Translations under genes and position numbers: made by a program | Shown: piece by piece, positions 1,602-52,374 of the stretch | Position numbering within the stretch: position 1 is the first letter of the stretch | How the letters are laid out: each line of letters opens with the position of its first letter | The notes under the pieces: model-generated | Databases searched by the model: none | Seen by the model: the letters and a program-made list of their open reading frames with translations, nothing else | What the model was told of the DNA's origin: nothing | Virus record (IMG/VR): IMGVR_UViG_3300021400_001516 | Length of the DNA: 64,000 bases | Strand: one strand, 5' to 3' | Origin: an uncultured virus (IMG/VR IMGVR_UViG_3300021400_001516) | Taxonomy: Duplodnaviria > Heunggongvirae > Uroviricota > Caudoviricetes

Positions 1602-3623
1602 ATGAAGGAAAAAGTTATTTTACAAGTACCGAAGGGAATAAGGTACATTAGTGATTATGAAAAACAGGGATTTAGGTTAGAAGATTTCCCCTATATTCTT
1701 GATAAAAAAATACCAGGTTGTGGATTTACTTCCTGGATTCTTACAAACTCTCAGAATATTATCTTAGCTTCTCCAAGAAAAATGCTAATGGAAAATAAGG
1801 AAAGACAAATAAATGGAGAAGGCAAGGATAGACAAGAATTAGTTTACCTAGTTCAGACTGCTTTCTGTGATTATGGTGTTGACAAGGATCTCAACAGGTA
1901 TTCTAGGGAAAGTAAGGATGATACACAAGTACCTACAGATTGGGTAGAACTTAAACATGAAATTAGTAAGTACGTATTACAATGTCAATTTGATAATCGT
2001 CCCGTTAAGATTATTGTAACTTATGATTCCTACCGAAAAGTAAAGGAGGTACTTGAAGATATGGGATTCTTTGATACCTTTCATACAGTAGTGGATGAGT
2101 TTCAAAGTATCTTCACAGACTCTAGGTTTAAGTCCTCTACTGAAATGGAATTTGTTGAAGTTTTAAAGGGGGTTCAGAAGGTATGTTATGTCAGTGCTAC
2201 TCCGATGATGGAAGAATATCTGAATATGATGGATTACTTCAAAGATCTCCCTTACCAAGAACTTGACTGGGGAACTTTAGATCCTGGTCGTATTAAAAAG
2301 CCCGATATAGATGTTAGATCTCTTAAGTCTGTTAATACTGCAATTAAACCAGTAATTGAAGCTTATAAGGCTGGGAAATTCGAACATAAATTAGTAAATG
2401 ACTATGTAAATCATACTTTAAAAGATGTAGAAAGTAGAGAAGCAGTTATTTATGTAAATTCAGTAACAAACATTATAGGTATTATTCGATCTTGTGGATT
2501 AATGCCCGACGAAGTTTGTATCTTATGTTCTGATACTCCTAATAATCAGAAAAGAATATCTAAGAAGCTTGATAAGAAGAGACAGGGAATAGAATATAAG
2601 ATTGAGAAAGTTCCAACTAGAGATGAACCAAGGAAGATGTTTACTTTCTGTACTAGGACGGTATATCTTGGGGCTGATTTTTATAGTGATAATGCAAGAA
2701 CTTTTATTGTTAGTGATGCTAATATAGACACCCTTGCGGTTGATATTACACTAGATCTTCCTCAGATTATGGGCAGACAAAGATTAGAAGAGAATCCATG
2801 GAAAGATGAAGCTATTCTGTATGTTCGTCCTCTAATGAAAAGTAAGGCTATGGATATCAAAGAATTCCGAGCATGGATAGAAAAGAAGGTAGAGGAGACT
2901 AATGATCTTCTGGATTCTTATGATAACTCTCCTACTGAAAAATCAAAAGCCAGTCTTATCAATGTTTATAGCAGAGAAGTTAATGGAAACAACTATAGAT
3001 ATAATTATGTTTCCGTTAATCAGCATGCAGGGAGTAAACCTATACCTGCGTTTAATTCTCTTGTCTTGATTGCAGAACAGAGAGCTTTTGATATACAACA
3101 ACTTGATTATGCTGACAGATTTACGGTATTTAGTCGAATCTTAGATCAATGTAATATAACACAAACTCAGTCTATGGAAGTTCAGATGTTTATACAGAAA
3201 TTTAACTCTCTTCCAACGGTGAATAGGTTAAAATTTTTATGTACATCCGAAGAAAATTTTACTGCAGAAGAGTGGGAGTTTATATTTTCAGAGATACCGA
3301 ACTTTTATAGAAATGTTTATCTTGGTATTGGTCCTGAGAGGTGTAAAGCTTTAGGATATAATTATTCTAGGGCTAAAGCTGAATATGAAACTAAATTCTT
3401 TAATACTGATATCGTAAAGAAAGATATTCTCTCTAGTTTTTCAGTAGGAGATAAAATTTCTAATAGTTATGTTAAAGAAAAGCTTAAAGAGATTTATAAT
3501 AAGCTAGGATATAAAAAAACTCCAAAAGCTAATGCATTAGAAGAATTTTTTGAAATAAAATATACTAAAATCAAGGAAAATAATTCTTGGGTTAATGGAA
3601 TTGAAATATTAAAACAGAAATAA
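1602..3623 (+). CDS. SF2 helicase-fold protein with degenerate Walker A (possible origin-binding/replication protein)
   Basis: KIPGCGFT (motif I without Lys), VVDEFQ (II), SATP (III), YVNSV (IV), TRTVYLGADF (V), QIMGRQR (VI). Confidence 0.65.
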   Translation: MKEKVILQVPKGIRYISDYEKQGFRLEDFPYILDKKIPGCGFTSWILTNSQNIILASPRKMLMENKERQINGEGKDRQELVYLVQTAFCDYGVDKDLNRYSRESKDDTQVPTDWVELKHEISKYVLQCQFDNRPVKIIVTYDSYRKVKEVLEDMGFFDTFHTVVDEFQSIFTDSRFKSSTEMEFVEVLKGVQKVCYVSATPMMEEYLNMMDYFKDLPYQELDWGTLDPGRIKKPDIDVRSLKSVNTAIKPVIEAYKAGKFEHKLVNDYVNHTLKDVESREAVIYVNSVTNIIGIIRSCGLMPDEVCILCSDTPNNQKRISKKLDKKRQGIEYKIEKVPTRDEPRKMFTFCTRTVYLGADFYSDNARTFIVSDANIDTLAVDITLDLPQIMGRQRLEENPWKDEAILYVRPLMKSKAMDIKEFRAWIEKKVEETNDLLDSYDNSPTEKSKASLINVYSREVNGNNYRYNYVSVNQHAGSKPIPAFNSLVLIAEQRAFDIQQLDYADRFTVFSRILDQCNITQTQSMEVQMFIQKFNSLPTVNRLKFLCTSEENFTAEEWEFIFSEIPNFYRNVYLGIGPERCKALGYNYSRAKAEYETKFFNTDIVKKDILSSFSVGDKISNSYVKEKLKEIYNKLGYKKTPKANALEEFFEIKYTKIKENNSWVNGIEILKQK

Positions 3624-3761: not shown

Positions 3762-4133
3762 ATGAAAGAAAAAAACGAAGAAAAGAAAGTAACAGGAAAT
3801 AAAATTAATTTTAAATCATTTAGAAATTGGTTAGTTAATTTTATGATTTACCTTTTTGTAGGAATTTTTCTCATATATGGTTCTTTAGGAGTCCATAAAG
3901 TATATCCTGAGTATTTTAAGGAAAGACGAAAAGGTCCAGTAGATAATATGAAGATACTTGCCGAGATTATCGAATACGGTTTTGTTTCAGCCGCGCTTAT
4001 AATATTCATAATGCCAATAATTTTTAATATTGCATCATATATTATAGCGGGGTGGAAGATAACAATGTTTCTTCAGTTGGGCCTCTACCTTACTCTTCCT
4101 TATTGGGAAAGAGTTTGTGGATGGCGAGAGTAA
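3762..4133 (+). CDS. Multi-pass membrane protein (start reassigned to MKEKNEE)
   Basis: Track start at 3666 overlaps terminator and promoter (3721-3726); ~3 hydrophobic segments. Confidence 0.6.
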   Translation: MKEKNEEKKVTGNKINFKSFRNWLVNFMIYLFVGIFLIYGSLGVHKVYPEYFKERRKGPVDNMKILAEIIEYGFVSAALIIFIMPIIFNIASYIIAGWKITMFLQLGLYLTLPYWERVCGWRE

Positions 4134-4200
4134 GACCATATATTAACCGAGCACTGTTGGTGCTTGGTTTTCTTTTTAAAACCAATAGAATCCTTATATA

Positions 4201-4276
4201 TGTATAGACAAACATTACTAAGGACCGACAAACAAATCAAAAAATTCTCCTAACTCATCGTCGGTCTATTTTTTTT
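4201..4276 (+). ncRNA. Candidate small RNA 1 (~75 nt)
   Basis: Preceded by terminator 4145-4177 and CTTATA 4193-4198; gaccgac/gtcggtc stem (4223-4229/4260-4266) plus T-run; no ORF. Confidence 0.5.
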
Positions 4277-4332
4277 ATTATTTTAGAGCAAAAAAAAAAT
4301 ACCGCCTGAAAAGGCCTAAAAAGCCTTATATA

Positions 4333-4453
4333 TGTAGAAAGAAGAGTTAGGAGTAAGTATCTGACATACTTTAAAAATCCTGGAAAAAAAGAAAGGCCAA
4401 TAAACGGCCAAGAACAATAGCCAGGGAGGAGTCGGAGGCTCTTCTTTTTTTTT
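4333..4453 (+). ncRNA. Candidate small RNA 2 (~120 nt)
   Basis: Own CTTATA at 4325-4330; ends pair (aagaagagtt/ggctcttctt); internal aagtat/atactt and cctgg/ccagg stems; T-run at end. Confidence 0.5.
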
Positions 4454-4476
4454 GCTCCTAAAGAACCCTTATATGT

Positions 4477-4770
4477 ATGAATAAGAAGGTAGAAACAATC
4501 AAGAAGAAAGCAGAACAAATTTTGAGTGTTCTGCAGGAACAAGAATTGGAACACGTTGCTGGTATATCGAGATATATCTTAGCTCGAGATTATCCTGACA
4601 GTAACGAAGCAGAGCAAGACTGGGAAGAACTTTTGGATGAGATCAATTATATATCAAGAATTCAGAAAGTCTTTCCAGTAGATATGGAAGATATCATTAA
4701 TAAGATTCAAAGAATTATTGATGAAGAAACAACAACTGGAGACAAGGAAGAAAATTCTTCAGAGTCTTAG
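4477..4770 (+). CDS. Hypothetical protein
   Basis: ORF track; ATG 3 nt after CTTATA. Confidence 0.6.
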   Translation: MNKKVETIKKKAEQILSVLQEQELEHVAGISRYILARDYPDSNEAEQDWEELLDEINYISRIQKVFPVDMEDIINKIQRIIDEETTTGDKEENSSES

Positions 4771-10482: not shown

Positions 10483-11661
10483 ATGATTAAAGAAATGGCT
10501 AAGACAAAATTTCACCGCGAACGTCGGACGCCGGCGTTCTTTAAAACATTCGCCCGTTTACTCGAGGAGTACAGAGTGGCGAACGAACAAGATTGGATCG
10601 ACAGTCCGATCCTGATGAAACTTTTCAATCAGGCATGTGCGGCTGTCGGCGGAGAACCTATTGTAGACAATGGGTTCGTTGAAAATGGCCGGGTCTGCCA
10701 AAACTTCTATGCAGCCCTGGCAATTACGAAAGAAAATCTCCGCATCTTAGGTGCGGACAGCTACCTACTGATTGAAGGGAACAGAAATGAGACCGGAGGG
10801 TTTAATTTTGTACTTGAATATGATAATTTCATCAAGTACATCGACTCTATCGGTGACACTGCCCTCAAAATAAAGGCAGCTAGGAAAGGTACTTCTTCTG
10901 GTAAGAAGAAGAAACCTTCAACGGCAAAAAAGGAACCGCAGGTAATAGCTCCTATTGTAGAGGAGAAACCCGTGGTAACTAAAAAGCGTGATCATGCTAA
11001 AAAGGATACTTCCTTTGATAAGAAGAGGGTTCCTATGAGGCGTGAGTTGCGAATGGCATTGTACGCCGGAGCTTTGGTTAACCATCTTGGTAATCAGGCC
11101 GATTACGGCGCAATCGCTAAAATTCTCGGTAACAACGATTACTGTTGTTTTAAGGAGTTTGATCGTCCCCGAGATGAACAACTTGCTTTCCAGTTTTGGA
11201 GCAAGGCACCAGGTTCGCTTGGTAATTATTTCAAGCTGGAAGGCGACATCGTAACCTTTCAGGAAGGCTGGGATTATCCTCGCCTTCTCGAAACTTACAT
11301 GTGTTGCACAGATCGAACAGAGGTATTTTGTGTACTTCCGATTTCGAAGGCTGCGCAAGAATTGTGCAAGTCAAAATACGTAAATGTCAACGGAAGCAAG
11401 GTATTCCCCGACAATGGAATCATTGCTCTGACACTCGTATTGCCCAACTATTTACCTAACACCCTTCGCGATGTTAGTAAGTACAGGGATGTCCTCAAGG
11501 ATGCAGTTTGCGTAAAGAACAAACTTAATTTCATCTTACCTGAGGATTATGATGATGAGATTGACGAAAAACAGTTGATTAATCTCTATCTTGGATTATC
11601 AACGAACATATCGGAGAGAACGTTAAACAATAAAATATTGTTTGACGCAATGTCGATGTAA
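10483..11661 (+). CDS. Hypothetical protein with Lys-rich linker
   Basis: ORF track; CTTATA 10436-10441; terminator ~11692-11726. Confidence 0.65.
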   Translation: MIKEMAKTKFHRERRTPAFFKTFARLLEEYRVANEQDWIDSPILMKLFNQACAAVGGEPIVDNGFVENGRVCQNFYAALAITKENLRILGADSYLLIEGNRNETGGFNFVLEYDNFIKYIDSIGDTALKIKAARKGTSSGKKKKPSTAKKEPQVIAPIVEEKPVVTKKRDHAKKDTSFDKKRVPMRRELRMALYAGALVNHLGNQADYGAIAKILGNNDYCCFKEFDRPRDEQLAFQFWSKAPGSLGNYFKLEGDIVTFQEGWDYPRLLETYMCCTDRTEVFCVLPISKAAQELCKSKYVNVNGSKVFPDNGIIALTLVLPNYLPNTLRDVSKYRDVLKDAVCVKNKLNFILPEDYDDEIDEKQLINLYLGLSTNISERTLNNKILFDAMSM

Positions 11662-11782
11662 TCGATGTAAGTCTTATCAGCACAGGGGATACTACCACCA
11701 ATCCCAATTGGTGGTAGTTTTCTTTTCCCCCAAAAACCTTATAGATGTAACTTAAATTAAAAACATTTTAAAGTAAAGAAAA

Positions 11783-11989
11783 ATGAGAAAGATCAAATTA
11801 CCGTGGCTCATAGCTGTTGTAATAGCTATAGCATTAGTATTAGTCGGAGCAAAGTGGCCCGATGAAGTAAATACCGCAAAGGACACGACGATCGCCGGCG
11901 CAAAGACTGCGTGGGATAAGATCGTACTTTGGATCAAGTACCTTACGGGAAAGATCAACAAGAAAACAGAAGAAATTACTGAAGAGTAA
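11783..11989 (+). CDS. Small membrane protein
   Basis: N-terminal TM; CTTATA 11738-11743. Confidence 0.6.
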   Translation: MRKIKLPWLIAVVIAIALVLVGAKWPDEVNTAKDTTIAGAKTAWDKIVLWIKYLTGKINKKTEEITEE

Positions 11990-12033
11990 CGAATATTTTA
12001 TTAACATTTATAAACTTTTTAATTCAATCTTAA

Positions 12034-12225
12034 ATGAATAAGACGTGGATTTGGATTGCACTTGCAGCAGTTGTAGGTGCAGTACTCGGCTGGTTTGGCC
12101 GGGGTTGCCGTAAAGGCAACGACAAGAAAGTCAAGGACGAAGTTAAGGAACTTGCTGAGGAGGCTAAGGAGGGAGTCGAGGAGACTGCCAAGAAGGCCGC
12201 CGACGCTGTAAAACCTGAGAAGTAA
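12034..12225 (+). CDS. Small TM plus charged helix protein (YtxH-like architecture)
   Basis: AAVVGAVLGWF then E/K-rich helix; terminator gtggaccc/gggtccac 12257-12283. Confidence 0.6.
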   Translation: MNKTWIWIALAAVVGAVLGWFGRGCRKGNDKKVKDEVKELAEEAKEGVEETAKKAADAVKPEK

Positions 12226-12333
12226 TTAATATACTTCAATCGTCTAGACGACTTCGTGGACCCCTGGGGTCCACTTTTTTTTTATCCCCTCGTTTCCTTA
12301 TAAGAGAAATTAAATATAAATAAAGATAGAAAT

Positions 12334-12492
12334 ATGAACAAAAATTGGTTTGAATTTTTTCAAGTAATTGAAGAAGGAATTAGAGGTACTCTTAAGGGTA
12401 TCAGTAAAGTATTCTTTGTCCTGGCGTGTGCAGGCTTGGCGCTGGGAAGTGTATTAGATCGCCTGAAAAAGAAGAAAAATAATAACAACTAA
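12334..12492 (+). CDS. 52-aa membrane peptide (not in ORF track)
   Basis: MNKNWFEFFQVIEEGIRGTLKGISKVFFVLACAGLALGSVLDRLKKKKNNNN; CTTATA 12297-12302. Confidence 0.6.
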   Translation: MNKNWFEFFQVIEEGIRGTLKGISKVFFVLACAGLALGSVLDRLKKKKNNNN

Positions 12493-12509
12493 TCTAAATC
12501 ATTGAAAAA

Positions 12510-12779
12510 ATGGATAAAATTTTAGCAATCCTTCAGAATTGGCTGAAGGGAATTTCGAAAGGAAATTCTGGTGAATCCGAAGTAGGTAAAACTATTAAAG
12601 CCCTTATTCGGGCAGTCTATTGGATTCTCGCCGCAGTAGGTCTCGGACAGGTCTGGTTATGGATCAAAGAGGGATCTTCTGATGATGACGACGACAGAAA
12701 AGATCGTCGTAGCGAACAAAATGGTCGTTCGGGTAGGTTTTCCCGTTTTGGCGGGAATAGGCCTCCTCGGCGAAATTAG
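12510..12779 (+). CDS. Small membrane protein with RG-rich tail
   Basis: ORF track; TM YWILAAVGLGQVWLWI. Confidence 0.6.
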   Translation: MDKILAILQNWLKGISKGNSGESEVGKTIKALIRAVYWILAAVGLGQVWLWIKEGSSDDDDDRKDRRSEQNGRSGRFSRFGGNRPPRRN

Positions 12780-12809
12780 TATATATAAACTTAAACACTA
12801 TGATTTAAC

Positions 12810-14006
12810 ATGAGTAAACCTTTAGATCATGGCGGATTATTGGTCGCAGCACTAATAGCCGCAGGAATTTTCTTAAAAAATTGCTTTAGTGCAAGAAGAA
12901 AATCCGAAGTTAACACCACCTCAGTGTCATTAACCAATAATGCTAAGGATGGTACTGGTTCTGAAAATTCACTGGAAGAAAGTGAAAAAGAGGACAAAGG
13001 GGAGACGGTAGTTATGGAAGAAAAAGAGCCCACTTTCATGGAAGAAGCAATTCTTCAGGCAATCGAAGAGGGAGTTGATCCTAACTATTTCCGTCCCTGC
13101 TTGGACGATGATGACAGAAGTCTGAGTCCAACTGTGAAGATTTCTCGTTTCTTTGATAGGAATACCCACAAGGAAGCAAGAAAAGTTGATATACTGTTCC
13201 CGATTCCGATCTCAATTGCAATGAGTAGTATGGATATGGGAAAGTATCAGTTTGTTACTGGGGATACTAAACTCCCTGGACCTTCGGCAAAGCAATTTAA
13301 CCAAAAACTTTTCTGGTCGGCATTTAACTTCAAAAATGGTTATGTGATCGACAAGATAATGAGGTTGTTGCCGTGTCTGGATGAGTCTTATATCGATACC
13401 GACATTGAAGGTCACTATTTTGTGAATTACTTTGTGTGGGATCGAGAATCATCTAGATATTTTTACCAACAGAAAATTATCTGTGGAGTAAATCATTGGA
13501 GGCGTCAAGAACTCGATAATGCTTGGGAAGGAAAGAGTAAATTCAACGAGCCGATCAAACAGTATCTTACTAAGGTATTTGAGAAGTTTGTTCTGGATAA
13601 GTCTTCCCTCACAAGTAATGTCATTAATCCTCTTTCCCTGGAAAGAGGAAGAAGGGTAGAAGACATTGACATTGACTACGTCATTCTTGATCATCGAGTA
13701 TCAATCGTTATTGCTGACGATGATCACCCGACTGGAATTACTCCGTATCAGCTGGCACTTCTGTTCAAGTATTTTGAATCAGATCTGGAAATCAGCGATG
13801 GATTACCGAATTCCAACAAGTTTGAGTATAAGAACCCAACTATTTACGACGAGGAAGCACTCTCTGCAGGACGTCTTGCAGTCTATTCAATAGATTCTGA
13901 GGATGAAAGTGAATGCCCTAGGATCAATCTTGAATGGATTGATGACGACTATGTAGAGGAAGAGGAGGAAAGGAAAAATTCCGAGTCTAAACCTGAAGAC
14001 AAGTAG
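12810..14006 (+). CDS. Membrane-anchored acidic hypothetical protein
   Basis: ORF track; N-terminal TM. Confidence 0.65.
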   Translation: MSKPLDHGGLLVAALIAAGIFLKNCFSARRKSEVNTTSVSLTNNAKDGTGSENSLEESEKEDKGETVVMEEKEPTFMEEAILQAIEEGVDPNYFRPCLDDDDRSLSPTVKISRFFDRNTHKEARKVDILFPIPISIAMSSMDMGKYQFVTGDTKLPGPSAKQFNQKLFWSAFNFKNGYVIDKIMRLLPCLDESYIDTDIEGHYFVNYFVWDRESSRYFYQQKIICGVNHWRRQELDNAWEGKSKFNEPIKQYLTKVFEKFVLDKSSLTSNVINPLSLERGRRVEDIDIDYVILDHRVSIVIADDDHPTGITPYQLALLFKYFESDLEISDGLPNSNKFEYKNPTIYDEEALSAGRLAVYSIDSEDESECPRINLEWIDDDYVEEEEERKNSESKPEDK

Positions 14007-26577: not shown

Positions 26578-26599
26578 ATGATTTAAAATTTATGAAATT

Positions 26600-26730
26600 A
26601 ATTTAAGGTTCGGAGACTTAGCTGGGAGTAACTCAAGAATATAGTAAAATATTCAAGTCCACCAAAGTTACTCCCAACGTATCTCCTTAGGTACGTACAT
26701 ACCGATTCCGCACAAAAGCGAAATTCCTCA
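26600..26730 (-). promoter_or_regulatory. Structured 5' leader of 25963-26577
   Basis: Promoter motif 26733-26738 (-); perfect 11-bp tgggagtaact/agttactccca stem with flanking and internal helices. Confidence 0.5.
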
Positions 26731-26819
26731 GATATAAGGAGGTAGGCGGATTTCAAGGGAAAATTTTTCCAAAAGTAACCTTATATATGTATTATTAACA
26801 ATTTAATATTTAAGATACT

Positions 26820-27137
26820 ATGTTATTTACTGAAACAAACGAAGAACAATTAAAAAACCTACTCCTTAGGGAGCAGCTGGAGAAAGGATTACGTCCTTTT
26901 ATCGAAGACTCAACTTTAAATATTATAGTCGAGGGCCTCGGTAATGATGAGAATGAACGGAATCGATCATTCTTCGATCAAGTAAGTCAAAGTTTAACTC
27001 ACTTTATAAAGGAGAAGAAGACACTTCCGATTCTCGGCAAATACCGCTTTGCAGGTGAGACAGTTGATCTCATTAAGTATGACGAGATCGTATATACGGA
27101 GGACTCGGCGTCTTTATTTATAGAGGCGTCTGTTTAA
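26820..27137 (+). CDS. Hypothetical protein
   Basis: ORF track; CTTATA 26780-26785; terminator ~27155-27188. Confidence 0.6.
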   Translation: MLFTETNEEQLKNLLLREQLEKGLRPFIEDSTLNIIVEGLGNDENERNRSFFDQVSQSLTHFIKEKKTLPILGKYRFAGETVDLIKYDEIVYTEDSASLFIEASV

Positions 27138-27223
27138 TAAAAGGACAAGTTGATAAGGGTATACATCAAGGTATGCCTTTTCTTTTTTCCTTCTCATTAG
27201 GCCTAAAAAACCTTATATATATA

Positions 27224-27760
27224 GAAATAAGTTAGTCTTATTTCAAAACCACGTATCTGAAACGTATGATACTAACTTGCTTAGGCAAACTAAAGGTGTC
27301 CCACGGGAACCTAAGCAAGGACAGACAGTAGAGGTGGCTACTGAGTTCGTCTAGGCGAACAGAAAATAGGTGGGAGTATCTATAGCATTTTGGTTATGAT
27401 ATATAGATATATAGGCCTAGAGCGTTAAAGGTATTAGAAGACAAGTCTGAGAACGGCACCAAATTTAAGCTTAGTATCGGACAATCAAAAAATTAACAAA
27501 ATAATAAATGCTCTAACTGAAGAAGTTAAGGGCGCCGGTGTGAGCCGGAGTATGAAGAATATTCCTAAGCAGCACCAAAACCGAGGTAGTCAGTGTACAC
27601 TGATGAACTCAGAAAAGGATTTTTAGATTAACTGTATTATCTAGATTTCCCCAGTAAGAGGTCGGGATGTTTAGGGGAGAAGAATACAGTTCTCTACTAA
27701 GGATGACTAGAAAGGCCGAAGAGGTATCCGGATGGCACCTTAGTTAAACATCATAAATCC
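27224..27760 (+). ncRNA. Large ornate structured non-coding RNA (~540 nt), family unassigned
   Basis: Own promoter (27212-27217) and terminator; no ORF >=60 aa; more than 10 helices incl. long-range 27341-27351/27602-27612 and crossing 27666-27673/27745-27752. Confidence 0.75.
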
Positions 27761-27791
27761 AAGAAAGAGAAATTCTTGGTATTATTTTTTT
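27759..27791 (+). terminator. Intrinsic terminator of large ncRNA
   Basis: ccaagaa-agagaaa-ttcttgg then T-run. Confidence 0.7.
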
Positions 27792-27846
27792 GCCCCCTCT
27801 ATCCCATTGTTTCCTTATAACTGATTAAGAAAAATAGATTAGAAAA

Positions 27847-28338
27847 ATGGAAAAAATTAATCCTGAAATTCAAGAGCATGTTTGTTTTTACAATGCGTGT
27901 ATTAGAGTCTTGAAAGAGGCTCACTCTGATTTAACGGATGAAAAATTAATGGAAATTCTTAAGGATATTGATTTCTTAGATACGAAATCTATTGCTATAA
28001 AAGCATTATTATGGCCTTTTGGAATTTCTAACCGAGAATTATTGTTTGCTCCTCTAGCAAGGTGTTTTAATTTTATTCGCAGAGTAGGGGACAATACTAC
28101 AAAGCTTGTTTGTAAATTATTTTCAATAGGAGTAGATTTATTATATACTCTTGGAGTATTCTATTTTATGTTGTCTTGGTTTTCTCCAGGACGTACTGAT
28201 GTTGGAATGCTATTTCTTCCATTAGGGTGCTCCTTTATTTATTATATGGCTTCAAGATTTTTTAATTATACCTACTTAGTTACTGAAGTAGAGTGGTATT
28301 ATCATCAAAAAGAAAAGTTAAAAGAATTGACAAGTTAA
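27847..28338 (+). CDS. Membrane protein
   Basis: Two C-terminal hydrophobic helices; CTTATA 27814-27819. Confidence 0.6.
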   Translation: MEKINPEIQEHVCFYNACIRVLKEAHSDLTDEKLMEILKDIDFLDTKSIAIKALLWPFGISNRELLFAPLARCFNFIRRVGDNTTKLVCKLFSIGVDLLYTLGVFYFMLSWFSPGRTDVGMLFLPLGCSFIYYMASRFFNYTYLVTEVEWYYHQKEKLKELTS

Positions 28339-41613: not shown

Positions 41614-42064
41614 TATAATTGAAGAGGAAAGAAAAATGGAAGAGAATAGTGAAAATACAGTAGGATATTGTCAAACAGTTTACGGAGGTTGGAATAATGT
41701 AGATGAATGTGCTTCGGCTGTTTGGAGTAGTATTCATAGTTCTTTATTAGAGGGCGAATTAGTATTTGCCTATAAAAGTACTTCAGGGAAATCAGAGCTT
41801 CAACAATTTGTGCTTGTGAAAAATCTGTTGGGGAAAGAAGCTGATGGTTATGGAGACCTTAGGACATGTAAGAAGGCTGGATATGCTTTAGGAATGATTA
41901 CTTCAGGGTTTTCTGTATTATATCCTTATCTCTCAGAGAAATATCTACTGGAGACAGGATTAGATGACTTGAAGAAATATAAAGTGCCTGCCGATGTTAT
42001 TAAGGCCTATATAAATTTAGTTAATGCTGCTATAAAAAAGTATGGATGCGAAGAAGAGGAGTAG
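41543..42064 (+). CDS. Hypothetical protein (true start probably downstream, MEENSE)
   Basis: ORF track. Confidence 0.55.
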   Translation: MLRKKLKKIQTEDQVASDIPENANIIEEERKMEENSENTVGYCQTVYGGWNNVDECASAVWSSIHSSLLEGELVFAYKSTSGKSELQQFVLVKNLLGKEADGYGDLRTCKKAGYALGMITSGFSVLYPYLSEKYLLETGLDDLKKYKVPADVIKAYINLVNAAIKKYGCEEEE

Positions 42065-43070
42065 AATTCTTGCGATAGACTTGGGATTTTCTTCAGTTAA
42101 AGTTGCTTACTACAATGAAGAAGGAGTATTAGTACTGGAGAAATATATATCAGCGATAGCTAAAGTTCCAGAGCCTGAGATCCTAGAAGATAATGATGAT
42201 ACAGTTTTTAAGTTGGGATTAGAGTATTACGTTCTTAGTAGTGCCGCCCTTAAGGTTGCTAGAAGTTATCAATTATCTCTCGAAAGTTTTCAAGGTCTCT
42301 GTCAGGTATATCCTGCTTGGATTTCTTATCTCCTGAAGAAGTATGGTGGTGTTGAGAGGTTTGATCATGTAGCAATAGGTCTTAGTATGGCTTATGCAGA
42401 TAAAGCAGATGATCTCCTTAATACTCTCTACGATACTCTAATGATTGATAAACAGGGATACTTCATGCTATTCTCTCAGGGAAGTGCAGCAAAGAAGACT
42501 TATCAGACTTGTGCACTTAACATTAAAGAGACCACTACAAGAAATGATTATAAAATGAAGAATTATATAATCTGTGATGGAGGTTTTGAAACTATCGACA
42601 TCTGTAATGTAGTGGGAAACGCAGTAGCTGGAGCAACTGTAGGATTAGAAAATACAGGAGTTATAATGGTAGCCTATGATATCCAGGATTATCTCTATAA
42701 AAATTTCGAAATTAAAGAGAGTATAAAAGGATGTCAGGATATTCTGGATAATAATGGAATATTCATTAGGCGAGGACGTCGTTATGATATTAGTGAAGTT
42801 GTTGATGGACTAATTCAAAAATATCTAACCAATGTATTAAAACTTCTAGAAGATCGTTTTTCTGAATTTCTCGATGCTGCAGAAGGAATTCTAATGTGTG
42901 GAGGAATCTCATATCTCTTCAAAAAAGCCCTTAAAGTTGAAAGTTTTGTTAAAGAGGTAGAAAAACATTTTCCAGTATCATTTCTGCATTTTCCAACAGA
43001 AGATGCAGAGTATTATAATGTATTTTCTTATCTGAAGGTAGCAGAAAGTTTACTTGAGAAAGAAAATTAA
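42042..43070 (+). CDS. ParM/StbA-like actin-fold ATPase
   Basis: Phosphate-1 AIDLGFSSVK, phosphate-2 ICDGGFETID, adenosine MCGGISY. Confidence 0.8.
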   Translation: MDAKKRSRILAIDLGFSSVKVAYYNEEGVLVLEKYISAIAKVPEPEILEDNDDTVFKLGLEYYVLSSAALKVARSYQLSLESFQGLCQVYPAWISYLLKKYGGVERFDHVAIGLSMAYADKADDLLNTLYDTLMIDKQGYFMLFSQGSAAKKTYQTCALNIKETTTRNDYKMKNYIICDGGFETIDICNVVGNAVAGATVGLENTGVIMVAYDIQDYLYKNFEIKESIKGCQDILDNNGIFIRRGRRYDISEVVDGLIQKYLTNVLKLLEDRFSEFLDAAEGILMCGGISYLFKKALKVESFVKEVEKHFPVSFLHFPTEDAEYYNVFSYLKVAESLLEKEN

Positions 43071-47038: not shown

Positions 47039-47164
47039 TACATTTATAAGGATATGAAGTTTTCTAGAACCCATAAAATCCTTATATATGTAGATATATT
47101 GGAACGGACCCCCAAGATCTACATGGATAAAATTTTTATTGGGTCTATAAATTAAGTATAAGCA

Positions 47165-47329
47165 ATGAAGAAGCTTTTCTTGATTCTTGCAGGCGTGGCC
47201 TGCATTGGAGCCGCAGCTCTCATGGGCGACGGCAAGAAGGATAACTCAAGCGTTGATGACACCGTCATTCCCGCTGGTGATGGCGTTGGAGGTGATAACC
47301 CCGATGCCGATGATCAACCGGCTGACTAG
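47165..47329 (+). CDS. 54-aa signal/TM peptide with acidic tail (not in ORF track)
   Basis: MKKLFLILAGVACIGAAALMGDGKKDNSSVDD...; promoter 47081-47086, terminator ~47359-47388. Confidence 0.7.
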   Translation: MKKLFLILAGVACIGAAALMGDGKKDNSSVDDTVIPAGDGVGGDNPDADDQPAD

Positions 47330-47470
47330 GACAGGACGTGTCTATATCGCGCGACACTGGTTTCCCCTTAGAGGGGAACCTTCTTTTTTCCGTCTTAGAG
47401 TTATAAAGAACCCTTATATATAAGTAAAACTAGAAACCTCACGATAGTATAAGGTTAATCGCAAAAAATA

Positions 47471-47689
47471 ATGGAGAAGATTTTTCAAATCCTCCTTCAA
47501 GCCCTTCTAAATATGGGGCTTGATGTAACCTCTGCAATTTTTGTAGAGGTACTAATAATATTTCTAGGAGTAGCCGTGGTAGTCTGCTCCTTAGAGAAAG
47601 TGTTGACTACCACTACTCTCGGTCAGAGAATAACTAGAAAGGCCGAGGAAATTTTCAGTGAGGACGACACCTACCCCAAGGGGGAATAA
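47471..47689 (+). CDS. Small membrane protein
   Basis: TM helix; promoter 47413-47418. Confidence 0.6.
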   Translation: MEKIFQILLQALLNMGLDVTSAIFVEVLIIFLGVAVVVCSLEKVLTTTTLGQRITRKAEEIFSEDDTYPKGE

Positions 47690-47719
47690 AAATAGGGAGG
47701 TCGTCCTCCCTTTCGGTTC

Positions 47720-47956
47720 TTATGAACCTCTTTTTTTGCATCGAAAGTCTTGGGCATCTCGTCTTACGATATCAATACCATTATCAATCCTCTCAAGCAT
47801 AAGTTTCTCATCCTCCTCGCTAAGCTCAAAATCTTTTATACTTTTCTTAAGATTCTGAAGACCTTTTTCGGATTCCATACAAGCTTCTTCTGATATGCAT
47901 GTGTCTGCACTAATCAGATTTGCGATCATTATTATTAATACATCTTTTTTATTCAT
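47720..47956 (-). CDS. Hypothetical protein
   Basis: ORF track; ATG 6 nt after promoter motif 47963-47968 (-). Confidence 0.55.
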   Translation of the reverse strand: MNKKDVLIIMIANLISADTCISEEACMESEKGLQNLKKSIKDFELSEEDEKLMLERIDNGIDIVRRDAQDFRCKKRGS

Positions 47957-47997
47957 AACACATATAAGAAAAGAAAAGGGGCTGTGCCCCTATTTTT

Positions 47998-48381
47998 TTA
48001 CTTTTTCTTACCTTGGTGGTGTTTTGTTATCTTTCCCTTCCACTTCCCATGTCTTATGCTCGGAGATACTAAGAGATCTACCCAATTACGGTGTTTCTTA
48101 GAGGTTAAATCATGAATAACGTAATCTCCATCTAGATCTCCTGTTCCTTCGATATGAATAGTGTCCCCAAATTCATAGGGACCTCCATTCTTCTTGAGAA
48201 GGTCTGGACTAATAGCGCACCAATGTACTGTCTTATTTTTGACTTTTTGCCACGGAATTATCGATCCATCAGCAGTCTGTCTGCCTTCATTATAGACAGT
48301 GATTGTTACTGATCGGCTGTGTGCAGATAATACTAAGTTAACTGCAAGAATAGTGATCAGCAAAATAAAAAATTTTTTCAT
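47998..48381 (-). CDS. Secreted 3D-domain (MltA-like/RlpA-like) protein
   Basis: Signal peptide MKKFFILL; TVY, TADG, CAISPDL, FGD, VIHD, VDLL. Confidence 0.75.
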   Translation of the reverse strand: MKKFFILLITILAVNLVLSAHSRSVTITVYNEGRQTADGSIIPWQKVKNKTVHWCAISPDLLKKNGGPYEFGDTIHIEGTGDLDGDYVIHDLTSKKHRNWVDLLVSPSIRHGKWKGKITKHHQGKKK

Positions 48382-50848: not shown

Positions 50849-51001
50849 ATGAAGAAAACATTGTTAGTAATACTTTATTACTTTTTGCTGATCGTAGGAA
50901 TTGACTTCATTTTGAGAGGTCTGAGGTGGGCATGGGACGGCACTCCCATGGGCTACCGAAGCTTTTCGAAGAGCTCTGAGAAAAAAGAGCTTAAAAAGTA
51001 A
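50849..51001 (+). CDS. 50-aa membrane peptide (start MKKTLL)
   Basis: TM helix; promoter 50794-50799; terminator ccttcccc/ggggaagg ~51033-51062. Confidence 0.6.
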   Translation: MKKTLLVILYYFLLIVGIDFILRGLRWAWDGTPMGYRSFSKSSEKKELKK

Positions 51002-51094
51002 AGCCAGCCCTACATCACGAAACTCAAAGGTACCTTCCCCAGCGGGGAAGGGTTCTTTTTCTTCCTTCTAATAGCCCCCTTAAAACCTTATATA

Positions 51095-51500
51095 TAGAGA
51101 GAAATATCATAACCAAACTAAAGGAAAATGTATATTTCTCTTATTTTACCTACTATAAAATCTCCAGCGCCTCTACGTGGCATAGTGGACTACTACTACT
51201 AAAGATTAGGAAGCTAAGACTGGAGCGAAGGATTCTGTATAGACATACGAGGTATAGCGATATATCTCTTATACAGATCTGGAGTACAAAGATTAAAACC
51301 TTTTAGACATGAAACTTAAAAAGATAAAGGATAACATAAGACGACGAATTTTAAAAAAATGGAAGAACCTTATGACTATCGCTTTTCGTCACTGATGATC
51401 TAATTGTCATACGAAAAGAGGCGAGATTCATTTCTCAGTTGAGATCTGAACCTCAAAAAAAACAACAAGAAGATATTCTAATCTTCTCATTGTTTTATTT
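51095..51500 (+). ncRNA. Structured ~400-nt transcript containing a 28-aa cationic ORF (51309-51395)
   Basis: CTTATA 51087-51092; stems 51099-51107/51132-51140, 51162-51167/51220-51225, 51234-51241/51270-51277, 51382-51389/51411-51418. Confidence 0.5.
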
Positions 51501-51510
51501 TTTTTCGTTC

Positions 51511-52374
51511 TTAGTACTGCCTTCTTGTATCTACTGTCCAAGATATGATATGCATGACTGCCTCTTTTGCAGTTTCTTCATCCATATCATCGGACGAATA
51601 GAGGAAGTTATGCTCCATCATATACACCGTCATTGGAATCACTAGATCGTCGGAGTGAAGAACACACTTCTTAGGTCTATAGTCACTGACTTCAACTTCT
51701 ATCTCCTCTTCATCGTTAGCCCCAAGATCAATTTCTCCACATCCAGAACCTATTATCTTAGTTCCATTCTTCTGTGCTTCTTGAAGAATCTTTTTCAATT
51801 CTTCGGGTATTCCATCTAGATCCGAAGTTGGGGATTGTTTCTTTCGTTTTTCAATCTTAGTGAATTGATTCTTCCAGATGTTCCAATATTTCCACTCAAT
51901 TTTTCCGCTTTCGAGACCTTTAGGAATATCCTGTGATTCAATGTCTTCCATTTCTACTTCATCTATGTCATAGTCATTGAAGATCATTTCAATCTCAGGA
52001 AGGATCTTTTCTTCCCACAATCTATGAAGTGCGAAGGCTCCAGACTCACTTACCATAAGAACTATTCTATCTTGATTATCTACTGCAATAAGTTGACCAT
52101 CAAGCTTAAAACAGTTACCTGGTTTTAGTTCTGGTTCATCTCCAAGAAAATTTCTATTCTCTTTGTAGATATGAACGGTTGTAGTTACCGGCTTTCCTTC
52201 ATCATCGAGTGTTCCAGTATCTCGTTCCTCGTCGTGATCGAATTCTTGCGGGAAACTACACTTAGGCCACTCTATAACCATGTTTAGTTTGCTGAGAAGC
52301 CCGGGTTTTTCTAAATAATTTATTCCCCTTTCACATCCTACTTTATACTTCTGCGGTAAAACATCAATTTTCAT
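51511..52374 (-). CDS. Hypothetical acidic protein
   Basis: ORF track. Confidence 0.6.
   Translation of the reverse strand: MKIDVLPQKYKVGCERGINYLEKPGLLSKLNMVIEWPKCSFPQEFDHDEERDTGTLDDEGKPVTTTVHIYKENRNFLGDEPELKPGNCFKLDGQLIAVDNQDRIVLMVSESGAFALHRLWEEKILPEIEMIFNDYDIDEVEMEDIESQDIPKGLESGKIEWKYWNIWKNQFTKIEKRKKQSPTSDLDGIPEELKKILQEAQKNGTKIIGSGCGEIDLGANDEEEIEVEVSDYRPKKCVLHSDDLVIPMTVYMMEHNFLYSSDDMDEETAKEAVMHIISWTVDTRRQY

Follow-up and report, generated by a model that had tools for sequence, protein, structure and literature searches.

Large, intricate RNAs are rare in bacteria and phages, and the few known classes (ROOL, GOLLD, OLE and raiA) have unknown functions, some of them forming RNA-only assemblies. 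OLE is ~600 nt long and the oapA gene adjoins its own. Published accounts describe a partner membrane protein, OapA, for OLE RNA (PMC3413148) and report that OLE forms a dimer (PMC12286853). They also give an average length of 581 nt for ROOL (Rumen-Originating, Ornate, Large; Weinberg et al. 2017, PMC5737381; cryoEM in PMC12286853), a covarying loop–loop contact of which proved to be intermolecular (PMC5737381, PMC12286853), and present GOLLD as a phage-associated RNA of more than 800 nt with two unequally conserved regions and a variable linker, the 3′ region being the conserved one (PMC12286853).

We analyzed a 64,000-nucleotide stretch of DNA from an uncultured tailed phage (hereafter, the window). 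Our best explanation for one of its loci, which we put forward tentatively and at slightly less than even probability, is a gene of an uncatalogued family for a large structured non-coding RNA, the RNA itself being the product, with an architectural role and a capacity to self-associate. The locus would add a further, unrelated class from an uncharted giant-phage lineage of ruminant guts. The fold model, with its two pseudoknots, one loop–loop contact and one conserved palindrome, is specific and open to testing. The RNA is a compact new target for cryoEM and structure probing and could show what such RNAs do for phages.

Relationship to known large RNAs

No Rfam family reached its gathering score anywhere in the 64-kb window and none matched the RNA core at E ≤ 10 (positions 26900–28100 scanned), ROOL, GOLLD and OLE included; the models of these three found no match in five to six homologous loci either. 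Group I and group II introns, RNase P and tmRNA also went unmatched at E ≤ 10, and ARAGORN returned no tmRNA and 0 tRNA genes in the window. We discarded rli53, GibS, the L13 leader, two miRNAs and SprD as weak chance Rfam matches at the region edges or in neighboring ORFs. As the RNA lacks an Rfam match, yet is conserved in five lineages with abundant compensatory changes, we consider it a new class. The initial annotation had left two options for a large structured phage RNA, a new class or a divergent member of a known one; the former is supported and the latter is not.

The RNA resembles ROOL in size (540–570 nt versus 581 nt), rumen origin and phage association, as well as in its several multistem junctions, three pseudoknot-type contacts, variable linker and covarying loop–loop contact. 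It departs from ROOL in matching no Rfam model at E ≤ 10, in the absence of tRNA genes from the 64 kb (ROOL usually lies near tRNA genes, in phage or prophage genomes from Firmicutes and further phyla) and in its carriers, which are ~370-kb jumbo phages with A-rich leaders devoid of Shine-Dalgarno sequences, whereas ROOL occurs in Firmicutes prophages. ROOL forms an RNA-only homo-oligomeric cage; the only hint of anything similar here is a conserved 16-nt palindrome. GOLLD is likewise a large phage RNA whose two regions differ in conservation and are connected by a variable linker, but our RNA is smaller, its 5′ domain is the better conserved one, and it has neither an Rfam match nor neighboring tRNA genes. 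The likeness to OLE lies in the large ornate RNA, in a small hydrophobic ORF downstream in four of the five types, as a candidate counterpart of OapA, and in the palindromic segment as a possible counterpart of the OLE dimer. Unlike OLE, however, the RNA has no Rfam match, is encoded by a phage rather than an extremophilic Firmicute, and is followed by mutually unrelated peptides.

Genomic locus and homologues

Positions 27138–27846 contain no usable reading frame (10–22 stops per frame, with all three kinds of stop in all six frames), bearing out the initial annotation of an ORF-free unit. The unit is bracketed by an upstream terminator and its own promoter motif on the 5′ side and by a hairpin with a T-run on the 3′ side (Table 1). 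The motif CCTTATATA occurs in 13 exact copies in the window, compared with 1.5 expected and with 0 of 100 shuffles reaching 13; these copies lie mostly upstream of genes or of ORF-free gaps, and the motif also precedes the RNA in L001, L022 and L054. The promoter first annotated as CTTATA (27212–27217) was partly right, the recurring motif being the longer one. A search allowing one mismatch detected no enrichment (44 found, 36 expected) and we accordingly do not claim the look-alike CCTTATAAC at 27813–21 as a promoter. Hairpins like that at 27224–44 follow other copies of the motif too and are thus probably a general transcript feature. Of the annotated terminator (27759–27791), the 3′ hairpin (27759–79) covaries in relatives; with the T-run that follows, it is terminator-like in the window. 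No ORF inside the RNA is common to the five types, and the ATG at 27266 was rejected as a conserved start as it opens 20–21 codons in two types and only 5 in L022.

Table 1. Features of the RNA locus in the window, with the pairing support obtained from its relatives
Feature	Positions	Strand	Description
Terminator-like hairpin and T-run	27155–27188	+	Stem 27155–27180, tail TCTTTTTT; closes upstream 105-aa ORF (26820–27137); left edge of RNA unit
Promoter-like motif	27211–27219	+	CCTTATATA; extended form AAAAAA-CCTTATATA-TATAG; putative promoter role
Whole RNA unit	27224–27791	+	Conserved core 27249–27779 (531 nt); nhmmer matches in six other contigs; no conserved ORF
5′ hairpin	27224–27244	+	GAAATAAG/CTTATTTC; variable; different-sequence hairpins at same place in L001, L022, L032/L054
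Pseudoknot PK1	27249–27337	+	CCAC 27249–52 with GUGG 27334–37 in P4 loop; 4/4 pairs change on both sides
P2	27253–27272	+	Hairpin GUAUC/GAUAC, 10-nt loop; nearly invariant block
P3	27276–27319	+	10-bp hairpin; conserved apical ACURAAGGUG...GGGAA; 7/10 pairs compensatory, 95.7% paired
P4	27326–27343	+	Hairpin CAGUAG/CUACUG; 6/6 compensatory, 82.5% paired
P5	27345–27360	+	Hairpin GUUCG/CGAAC; 100% paired, 2 compensatory; variants GUUCG/CGAAC, GAUCG/CGAUC, CCUCG/CGAGG
Pseudoknot PK2	27350–27421	+	P5 loop UCUAGG 27350–55 with CCUAGA 27416–21; 92.9% paired, 3 compensatory
P6	27376–27410	+	Hairpin GUAUCUAUA/UAUAGAUAU; complementary arms, different in sequence, same place in all five types
P7	27445–27482	+	Variable hairpin at domain boundary; hand-read arms 5–7 bp per type; length and sequence vary
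Linker	27483–27510	+	A/U-rich, ~20–28 nt, between domains; least conserved around here in L032/L054
P8	27511–27531	+	Hairpin, conserved loop YGRAGAR; 84.4% paired, 5/6 compensatory
P9 and P9a	27537–27576	+	P9 (GGUG/CACC) encloses P9a (GGAGUAU/AUAUUCC, loop GAAGA); P9a 83.3% paired, 6/7 compensatory
P11	27581–27665	+	CCGA 27581–84 with UCGG 27662–65, around P10 and P12; 4/4 compensatory, 92.9% paired
P10	27589–27604	+	16 nt, fully self-complementary, GUCAGUGU then ACACUGAU; flanks conserved GUA, GAAC; 6/6 compensatory, 100% paired
P12	27624–27643	+	Hairpin UAGAU/AUCUA; conserved loop with CUGUAUU; 71% paired, 3 compensatory
Loop–loop contact	27632–27689	+	CUGUAUU 27632–38 (P12 loop) with AAUACAG 27683–89 (P13 loop); 95.9% paired
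P16	27666–27752	+	GAUGUUUA/UAAACAUC; nested helix closing three-way junction around P13, P14; 83.9% paired, 4 compensatory
P13	27677–27694	+	Hairpin GAGAA/UUCUC; 5/5 compensatory, 82.9% paired
P14	27696–27744	+	ACUAAGG/CCUUAGU, encloses P15; 5/7 compensatory, 79.6% paired
P15	27715–27725	+	Small hairpin, loop GAAGA; 100% paired, 2 compensatory
3′ hairpin	27759–27791	+	CCAAGAA/UUCUUGG, conserved loop AGAGARR, then UAUUA and T7 run; 6/7 compensatory, 93.9% paired

The nhmmer search called for initially recovered homologues on six further contigs of metagenomic or viral origin, giving with the window seven sequences of five diverged types that are 46–65% identical (window and L027; L001; L022; L032 and L054; L029), so that five independent lineages only stand behind the covariation evidence. 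All the metagenome homologues were retrieved with patterns from conserved blocks. The candidates L003, L005–L019, L021, L024–L026, L028, L030, L031 and L033–L035 were discarded after nhmmer as chance matches of the pattern scan, as were 36 of the 38 loci of a second scan. One match, at E 4e-45, is to a phage whose neighboring MoxR protein is only 60% identical, and L027 carries a near-identical relative of the window RNA (3 differences). Each record holds one copy of the RNA, and its gene neighbors differ among the window, G001 and G002, the last having a different neighborhood. The other ORF-free gaps of the window exhibit no nucleotide conservation within the 80 kb of G001 and G002 examined.

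The carriers are uncultured jumbo phages of ruminant guts, with genomes of roughly 370 kb by extrapolation, and the lineage is present in ruminant-gut metagenomes of 12 studies. GenBank phages yielded no DNA match to the RNA, to the 20 kb around it or to the L032 RNA, and protein matches reached no more than 29% identity, indicating a jumbo-phage lineage without a close GenBank relative. IMG/VR locus searches with two flanking small ORFs found no locus, two IMG/VR contig identifiers are absent from six supplementary files of Fremin et al. 2023, and the Jug-phage paper (PMC12880540) contains none of the terms on non-coding RNA that were sought in it. As a general trait of the carriers, their leaders are A-rich and lack a Shine-Dalgarno sequence.

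Architecture of the RNA

The + strand folds at −153.7 kcal/mol, compared with −125.7 ± 6.3 kcal/mol for 100 shuffles (z −4.44), none of which folded as well; the + strand thus did better than shuffled controls, a comparison proposed at the outset. The − strand has a z of −2.72. RNAalifold, run on a structure-blind MAFFT alignment, predicted 101 pairs, of which 62 showed compensatory change, and such changes support ~17 helices, two pseudoknots and one 7-bp loop–loop contact. Of the cells in the 5′-domain model, 89.2% are paired, versus 30–42% with slid partners, and 27 of 44 pairs have compensatory changes, versus 3–8. The 3′ domain gives 83.1% versus 38–46% of cells and 46 of 68 pairs versus 10–19. 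Compensated pairs well above those of slid or shuffled controls, along with the absence of a shared ORF, identify the locus as one encoding a structured RNA.

A strict scan, in which a helix had to be paired in all five types, with four or more consecutive base pairs and no fewer than two compensatory ones, returned six helices, all inside the model. P6, P7 and P9 rest on hand-read arms; re-alignment of P8–P10 with the covariance model R1 gave back the MAFFT seed, with the register of P8 (in L032/L054) and of P9 uncorrected. The strand assignment derives mainly from promoter and terminator orientation and from the fold scores, as the excess of G-U over A-C cells in the model is modest (29 versus 19).

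Covariation shows a predicted fold of two domains, spanning 27249–27432 (5′) and 27511–27779 (3′). This two-domain layout, whose halves are connected through a variable hairpin plus an A-rich linker, is new relative to the initial annotation. The 5′ domain is better conserved than the 3′ domain, and between L032 and L054 conservation is lowest in the 50-nt segment that takes in the linker and the beginning of P8 (84% versus 94–100%).

The 5′ domain is predicted to be held by two pseudoknots, revealed by covariation, each formed between a hairpin loop and a remote strand. PK1 is paired in 100% of cells through the variants CCAC/GUGG, UCAU/AUGA and UAGU/ACUA, and PK2 forms 6/6 pairs in all five types (with UUUGGG/CCCAAA, UGCCGG/CCGGCA and UCAGGG/CCUUGA among them). 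The 5 pairs of P2 never vary, so covariation cannot test this helix, and its invariance is in part an ascertainment effect because most homologues were retrieved with a pattern from the P2 block. P6 is only 64% paired (5 compensatory pairs) because MAFFT misaligns it.

The 3′ domain, according to the same covariation evidence, would comprise two stacked junctions tied by the 7-bp loop–loop contact. This contact passes the strict scan; its 3 compensatory pairs all come from L029. It may form within one molecule or between two. P9 was read by hand only, as five different complementary arm pairs, the automatic alignments being out of register (37.5% paired). In L032/L054, P12 underwent a single double change that kept the pairing (columns 435 and 455 of alignment A2).

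Every complementarity listed in the initial annotation is present in the sequence at the coordinates given, and its local hairpins cttgcttagg/cctaagcaag, tatctata/tatagata and ggagtat/atattcc (P9a) are confirmed by conservation or covariation in relatives. Its long-range pairings fared unevenly, three being right and about half wrong. The pairing 27630–38/27683–91 is real, with a core corresponding to the loop–loop contact of two hairpins, and 27696–702/27738–44 covaries as P14. The supposed pseudoknot 27666–73/27745–52 also pairs, as the nested helix P16 rather than as a pseudoknot. For 27617–22/27755–60, 75.7% of cells pair with 0 compensatory pairs. The helix 27341–51/27602–12, in turn, is broken in 3 of 7 sequences, where a competing local hairpin covaries, 27418–26/27507–15 overlaps a covarying pseudoknot strand, and a second proposed pseudoknot (27388–94/27574–80) is not conserved in relatives.

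A conserved palindrome and possible self-association

P10 pairs as 8+8 nt with no unpaired center in all seven sequences and all five types, its central positions reading GUAC, AUAU, CAUG, GUAC and UAUA, that is, four different tetranucleotides, all palindromic. A duplex of two copies is computed to be 12–17 kcal/mol better than two hairpins. The conserved palindrome, a new finding, hints at RNA–RNA dimerization; short-loop hairpins are all near-palindromic, so P10 is a hint of dimerization and not a proof.

In the mechanism that we favor, transcription of the window RNA probably starts from a CCTTATATA-type promoter of its own and would end at the hairpin and T-run, yielding a transcript of ~540–560 nt. 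The RNA itself would be the product, an architectural RNA associating with copies of itself in the manner of ROOL, GOLLD and OLE. The 16-nt self-complementary segment could form an intermolecular duplex, and three or four conserved purine-rich GRAGA-type loops could serve as docking or binding sites. We also envisage, with rather low confidence, a new self-assembling giant-phage RNA in which P10, and possibly the loop–loop contact, joins copies, and the small membrane peptide that most lineages encode just downstream tethers the particle to the host membrane. If true, it would form a dimer or larger RNA-only particle of the ROOL, GOLLD and OLE kind, membrane-tethered during infection.

Downstream genes and transcripts

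A small hydrophobic ORF of 36–82 aa begins 32–40 nt past the 3′ hairpin in L001, L022, L032/L054 and L029, and the intervening spacer is partly conserved, AGACAAYAAY being common to three of these four types. The 3′ hairpin, terminator-like in the window, is not flagged as such in L001, L032 and L029, in which no terminator-like site was found between the RNA and the ORF. With a small ORF close behind and no such site, those phages probably make the RNA as the 5′ part of a longer transcript. In the window and L027, a run of T7–T10 follows the RNA and, in L027, the next elements are another promoter motif and a soluble, unrelated ORF. The description of the RNA as stand-alone hence applies to the window type, L027 included, and probably not to the other four types.

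These data bear on the idea that the RNA chiefly belongs to a small membrane-protein gene, as its very long structured leader or as the 5′ portion of a transcript with two functions; its fold would then control translation or stability of the ORF, or else the peptide would anchor the RNA at the membrane, as OapA does for OLE. The position of the hydrophobic ORF, the shared spacer motif and the lack of a terminator-like site agree with it, as do the hydrophobic C-terminal segments that we read in the sequence of the 163-aa protein downstream of the RNA in the window. We nevertheless judge it unlikely, since the small proteins are mutually dissimilar across types (BLASTP E > 1), the RNA of the close pair L032/L054 is much better conserved than the ORF just downstream (~97.5% versus 76–84% identity), and a T-run comes after the RNA in both the window and L027, in the latter ahead of a new promoter motif and an unrelated gene. 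To our knowledge, cis-acting leaders are also rarely so large or complex as an RNA of ~17 helices, two pseudoknots and a loop–loop contact.

The stretch occurs in 20 runs, 6 of which are metatranscriptomes. RNA-library contigs (4 RNA runs from 4 studies) cover 27237–27753 in pieces; they are uninformative on transcript ends, strand, level and depth of the RNA relative to its flanks, and may include DNA carry-over. None of the contigs listed extends from the RNA into the gene downstream, and breaks fall at 27237 and 27431–34, which may be strain branch points rather than RNA ends because the data are assembly contigs.

Purine-rich loops and remaining alternatives

The recurrence of GAAGA as a hairpin loop, pointed out in the initial annotation, extends to the relatives. 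GAAGA- or GAAAA-capped hairpins recur three times in the RNA, and several loops are conserved on stems that covary: P8 has YGRAGAR, P9a has GAAGA or GAAAA in four of the five types, P15 has GAAGA, GAAAA or GAGGA, and the 3′ hairpin has AGAGARR. The P9a loop of L032/L054 is AUAGUUUAA, outside the GAAGA/GAAAA pattern. In lambda, the boxB hairpins are capped by GAAGA or GAAAA pentaloops, adopt a GNRA-like fold and bind the N peptide. Each boxB consists of one 15-nt hairpin within a short nut site and acts in cis on RNA polymerase. The capped hairpins described here share this likeness to the lambda nut boxB, but their loops are parts of a 540-nt fold and we identified no N-like protein.

Such loops would also suit a protein-binding scaffold or decoy, with the GRAGA-type loops (three or four) and AGAGARR as repeated sites on which a phage or host RNA-binding protein is sequestered or assembled during infection. 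The retention of loop sequences above covarying stems, and the match of GAAGA and GAAAA to the pentaloops of N-binding boxB, point in this direction. We give this proposal the same low probability as a leader function: we could link no candidate binding protein to the RNA, whose neighbors differ in the window, G001 and G002; the purine-rich loops equally suit RNA–RNA tertiary contacts; and the AUAGUUUAA loop falls off the pattern.

A ribozyme or other catalytic or processing RNA (self-cleaving, ligating or intron-like) is far less probable still. The size, the pseudoknots and the highly conserved unpaired blocks do resemble those of large ribozymes, and L022 has a weak Pistol-ribozyme match over P4–P5 (20.7 bits, E 4.4), but this match lies under the gathering score of 34.5 and is absent from the other sequences. 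The window RNA matches no group I, group II, RNase P or small-ribozyme model (E ≤ 10), it interrupts no gene, and an upstream terminator and a promoter motif flank it.

That there is no functional RNA, and that a decayed gene or a DNA-level element (an origin or protein-binding palindromes) merely bears incidental hairpins, is scarcely credible: hairpins abound in the AT-rich intergenic DNA of phages and the − strand also beats its shuffles, but the locus retains no trace of a shared reading frame, its kept G-U pairs are not palindromic at the DNA level, and double substitutions preserve pairs at dozens of positions, including pairs 70–90 nt apart.

An ORF-free unit between putative transcription signals

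Each of the six reading frames of 27138–27846 contains 10–22 stop codons of all three kinds, leaving no usable frame, as the initial annotation had claimed; an altered genetic code would thus not rescue a gene. The RNA unit (27224–27791, + strand) is bracketed by two hairpins, and the promoter-like motif CCTTATATA precedes it. This motif occurs in 13 exact copies in the 64-kb window against 1.5 expected, mostly upstream of genes or ORF-free gaps, usually with an A-rich run on its 5' side and TR on its 3' side. In several units (e.g. 47080, 51086, 4324 and, on the - strand, 48444), a stable hairpin immediately follows. CCTTATATA appears to represent a phage-specific class of promoter accompanied by 5' hairpins; no RNA polymerase gene was found among the ORFs scanned. 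We infer both the use of this promoter by the RNA unit and the ends of its transcript. In two contigs carrying RNA homologues, L032 (1458–1487) and L022 (RNA strand, just 5' of the core), the hairpin between motif and core is followed by a T-run and scores as terminator-like; it could be an attenuator-like element ahead of the RNA.

Homologues and family membership

Homologues were sought through the locus of the neighbouring MoxR protein, by nhmmer, by conserved-block pattern scans and by profile nhmmer. The first, L001, was found through its MoxR (60% identical to that of the window), and its match to the ORF-free region has an nhmmer E of 4e-45. Pattern scans and profile nhmmer added L027, L022, L032, L029 and L054; the remaining pattern-scan matches were discarded as chance. 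The RNA is thus carried by six other contigs, in one copy per record. The seven sequences form five types with 46–65% identity between types: the window with L027 (3 positions differ), L032 with L054 (14 positions and one 1-base indel), and L001, L022 and L029 singly.

Using cmscan against 4227 Rfam families, nothing in the 64-kb window reached the gathering score and no match overlapped the RNA core at E≤10. ROOL, GOLLD, OLE, intron, RNase P and tmRNA families had no match in the six homologous loci, the search yielding just a Pistol hit below threshold in a single relative, and ARAGORN found neither tRNA nor tmRNA genes in the window. The RNA represents a new class of large phage RNAs with pseudoknots, as initially suggested, although its fold departs from the proposed one in important respects.

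A covarying two-domain fold

The + strand of 27224–27791 folds at -153.7 kcal/mol, compared with -125.7 +/- 6.3 for 100 dinucleotide-preserving shuffles (z -4.44), none of which was as stable; the - strand gave z -2.72. RNAalifold, applied to a structure-blind MAFFT alignment, returned 101 pairs, 62 of them with compensatory change. We wrote a fold model by comparative reading and counted its pairs on MAFFT alignments, with partners slid by 1–3 columns as a control. The 44 pairs of the 5' domain are formed in 89.2% of cells (30–42% when slid) and 27 change on both sides (3–8 when slid); the corresponding values for the 68 pairs of the 3' domain are 83.1% (38–46%) and 46 compensatory pairs (10–19). 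After covariance-model realignment, the P8–P10 segment is paired in 79.9% of cells versus 37–51%. A strict blind scan, limited to helices paired in every one of the five types with 4 or more consecutive pairs and 2 or more compensatory ones, retrieved six helices, all already in the model, and a double substitution between L032 and L054 preserves a P12 pair (alignment A2, columns 435 and 455). P6, P7, P8, P9, P9a and, in L029, PK2 were out of register in MAFFT, and their hand-read arms were checked by script; these helices have a different complementary arm pair at the matching place in each of the five types, which is weaker evidence as it was fitted by eye.

Features of the RNA unit and its surroundings
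Feature	Position	Strand	Description
Terminator-like hairpin	27155–27180	+	3' of upstream 105-aa ORF; left bracket
CCTTATATA motif	27211–27219	+	between upstream hairpin and RNA
CCTTATATA copies	3720, 4192, 4324, 7197, 10435, 14917(-), 26779, 27211, 47080, 47412, 48444(-), 50793, 51086		exact copies
5' domain	27249–27432	+	PK1, P2–P6, PK2
PK1	27249–27252	+	CCAC with P4 loop; 4/4 pairs covary
P2		+	5'-domain hairpin; invariant
P3		+	5'-domain 10-bp hairpin; conserved apex ACURAAGGUG...GGGAA
P4, P5		+	5'-domain hairpins
PK2	27416–27421	+	with six P5 loop bases
P6		+	5'-domain hairpin; hand-read arms
P7		+	variable hairpin at domain boundary, then A/U-rich linker
3' domain	27511–27779	+	P8–P16 and 3' hairpin
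P8		+	3'-domain hairpin; loop YGRAGAR
P9		+	encloses P9a (loop GAAGA or GAAAA)
P11		+	encloses P10 and P12
P16		+	directly 3' of P11; encloses P13, P14, P15 (P15 loop GAAGA)
Loop–loop contact		+	7 bp, P12 loop CUGUAUU with P13 loop AAUACAG; preserved by three double changes in L029
3' hairpin	27759–27779	+	loop AGAGARR; then UAUUA and seven T; right bracket

Every complementary segment listed in the initial annotation is present in the sequence at the coordinates given there, and the comparative fold retains its three inner hairpins, the 3' hairpin, the recurring GAAGA loops and the helix 27696–27702/27738–27744. The pairing 27630–27638/27683–27691 is also supported and corresponds to the loop–loop contact, and 27666–27673 does pair with 27745–27752 but as a nested helix rather than the pseudoknot proposed. 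The long-range helix 27341–27351/27602–27612 is broken in L032, L054 and L029 exactly at the covarying positions of the local P5 hairpin, its middle owing its conservation solely to the resemblance of CGAAC to UGAAC. The pairing 27418–27426/27507–27515 clashes by overlap with the PK2 strand, and the second claimed pseudoknot (27388–27394/27574–27580) is unsupported in relatives. The proposed helix 27617–27622/27755–27760 may form; it is paired in 75.7% of cells, with zero compensatory change.

Self-complementarity of P10

P10 (27589–27604) is exactly 16 nt long and fully self-complementary in all seven sequences (8+8, with 1–2 G-U pairs and no unpaired base at the centre). It is flanked by conserved GUA and GAAC, and its central tetranucleotide varies across types (GUAC, AUAU, CAUG, GUAC, UAUA). 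Self-complementarity is needless in a hairpin loop and required in a duplex of two copies. The placement of the G-U pairs points to selection acting on the RNA rather than on the DNA. A two-copy duplex is computed to be 12–17 kcal/mol better than two hairpins, as expected of any palindrome. According to PMC12286853, ROOL and OLE multimers are held together where identical sequences from different chains meet, and also by loop–loop contacts that had initially been noted as covarying "tertiary" pairs. By analogy, P10 hints at RNA self-association, which is speculative, as is any role for the GRAGA loops.

Autonomous RNA or leader of a hydrophobic peptide gene

We infer that the unit acts as an RNA product. 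The main rival is that it serves as leader or partner of a downstream hydrophobic peptide gene: in L001, L022, L032/L054 and L029, a hydrophobic ORF of 36–82 aa begins 32–40 nt past the 3' hairpin, after a spacer common to three of these types, and L001, L032 and L029 have no terminator-like site in between. However, the RNA ends in T7 in the window type and T10 in L027, which carries a new CCTTATATA motif and an unrelated ORF of 86 aa downstream. Its neighbours also change in two related phage contigs: in G001 the RNA again follows the MoxR block but the genes beyond differ from those of the window, and in G002 it adjoins a homologue of window ORF 1602–3623. Moreover, between L032 and L054 the RNA is 94–100% identical outside the linker window, whereas the next ORF is 76–84% identical. 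Since the downstream peptides have no detectable similarity to one another, we consider the leader or partner reading rather improbable. Autonomy and a leader arrangement would be compatible if the RNA and the membrane peptide formed a pair of the OLE/OapA kind; any role for the peptide is speculative.

Past the 58-aa ORF of L001 (~3440–3620, - strand), another ~200 nt of GC-rich hairpins without ORFs precede a hairpin and T-run (GATACA...TGTATC TTTATTTTTT), and a CCTTATAAT look-alike then fronts the next ORF; the L001 transcript carrying the RNA may be ~1 kb long.

Presence in RNA libraries

In four RNA libraries, each from a different study, contigs span 27237–27431 and 27434–27753 in pieces; two of these runs also partly cover the flanking genes. 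The contigs show presence in RNA libraries and are silent on ends, strand and level, with DNA carry-over possible. Adapter remnants adjoin 27236–27237 in two runs, which is weakly compatible with a 5' end near the promoter motif. Overall, the RNA is shown to be non-coding and conserved, with a covarying fold, a single copy per record and a presence in RNA libraries.

RNA-library contigs from two studies (runs X17 and X19) match from 27434 on, that is P7 and the 3' domain, with 0 and 15 differing letters, respectively. They are joined 5' to unrelated sequence ending ...TTTTTTATAACCT and lack the conserved 5'-domain end (AGCGUUAAAGGU), which suggests that some strains have the 3' domain but lack this 5' domain, or that the arrangement is split. 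Contigs of X15 and X17 over the downstream 163-aa gene no longer match the window immediately 5' of 27830, indicating that in other strains this gene has a different sequence in front of it instead of the RNA.

Phage genome and sample setting

The window is a piece of a large phage genome. Its genes include those for a GroEL-like chaperonin, an NAD-dependent ligase-like protein, an actin/MreB-like protein, an FtsH-like protease, a MoxR-type AAA ATPase adjoining a VWA protein, and both type II topoisomerase subunits. Two related IMG/VR contigs (156.5 and 94.4 kb; completeness 42% and 25%) extrapolate to genomes near 370 kb. The window sequence searched had no DNA-level match among GenBank phages, and the best protein identity to these was at most 29%. 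The stretch or near-identical sequence occurs in 20 of the 24 public runs listed, from 12 studies; where labelled, these are gut metagenomes (sheep, bovine or unspecified), and the set includes six metatranscriptomes. Start codons are preceded by A-rich leaders without Shine-Dalgarno sequence, tentatively suggesting a Bacteroidota-like host.

Further ORF-poor gaps (4133–4477, 11661–12810, 47074–47998 and 51001–51511), three with 1–2 CCTTATATA copies, could hold more non-coding RNAs; they show no nucleotide conservation within the 80 kb of G001/G002 compared. In the MoxR–RNA gap, 26598–26756 (- strand) is 75% identical to G001 118441–118574 and overlaps a 52-aa ORF, and may be a small conserved gene. 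Identity between the window and G001 reaches 91% for the actin/MreB-like protein (42042–43070; Pfam MreB-like_C, PHROG 'partition protein'), compared with 45–72% for its neighbours; this protein is unusually constrained.
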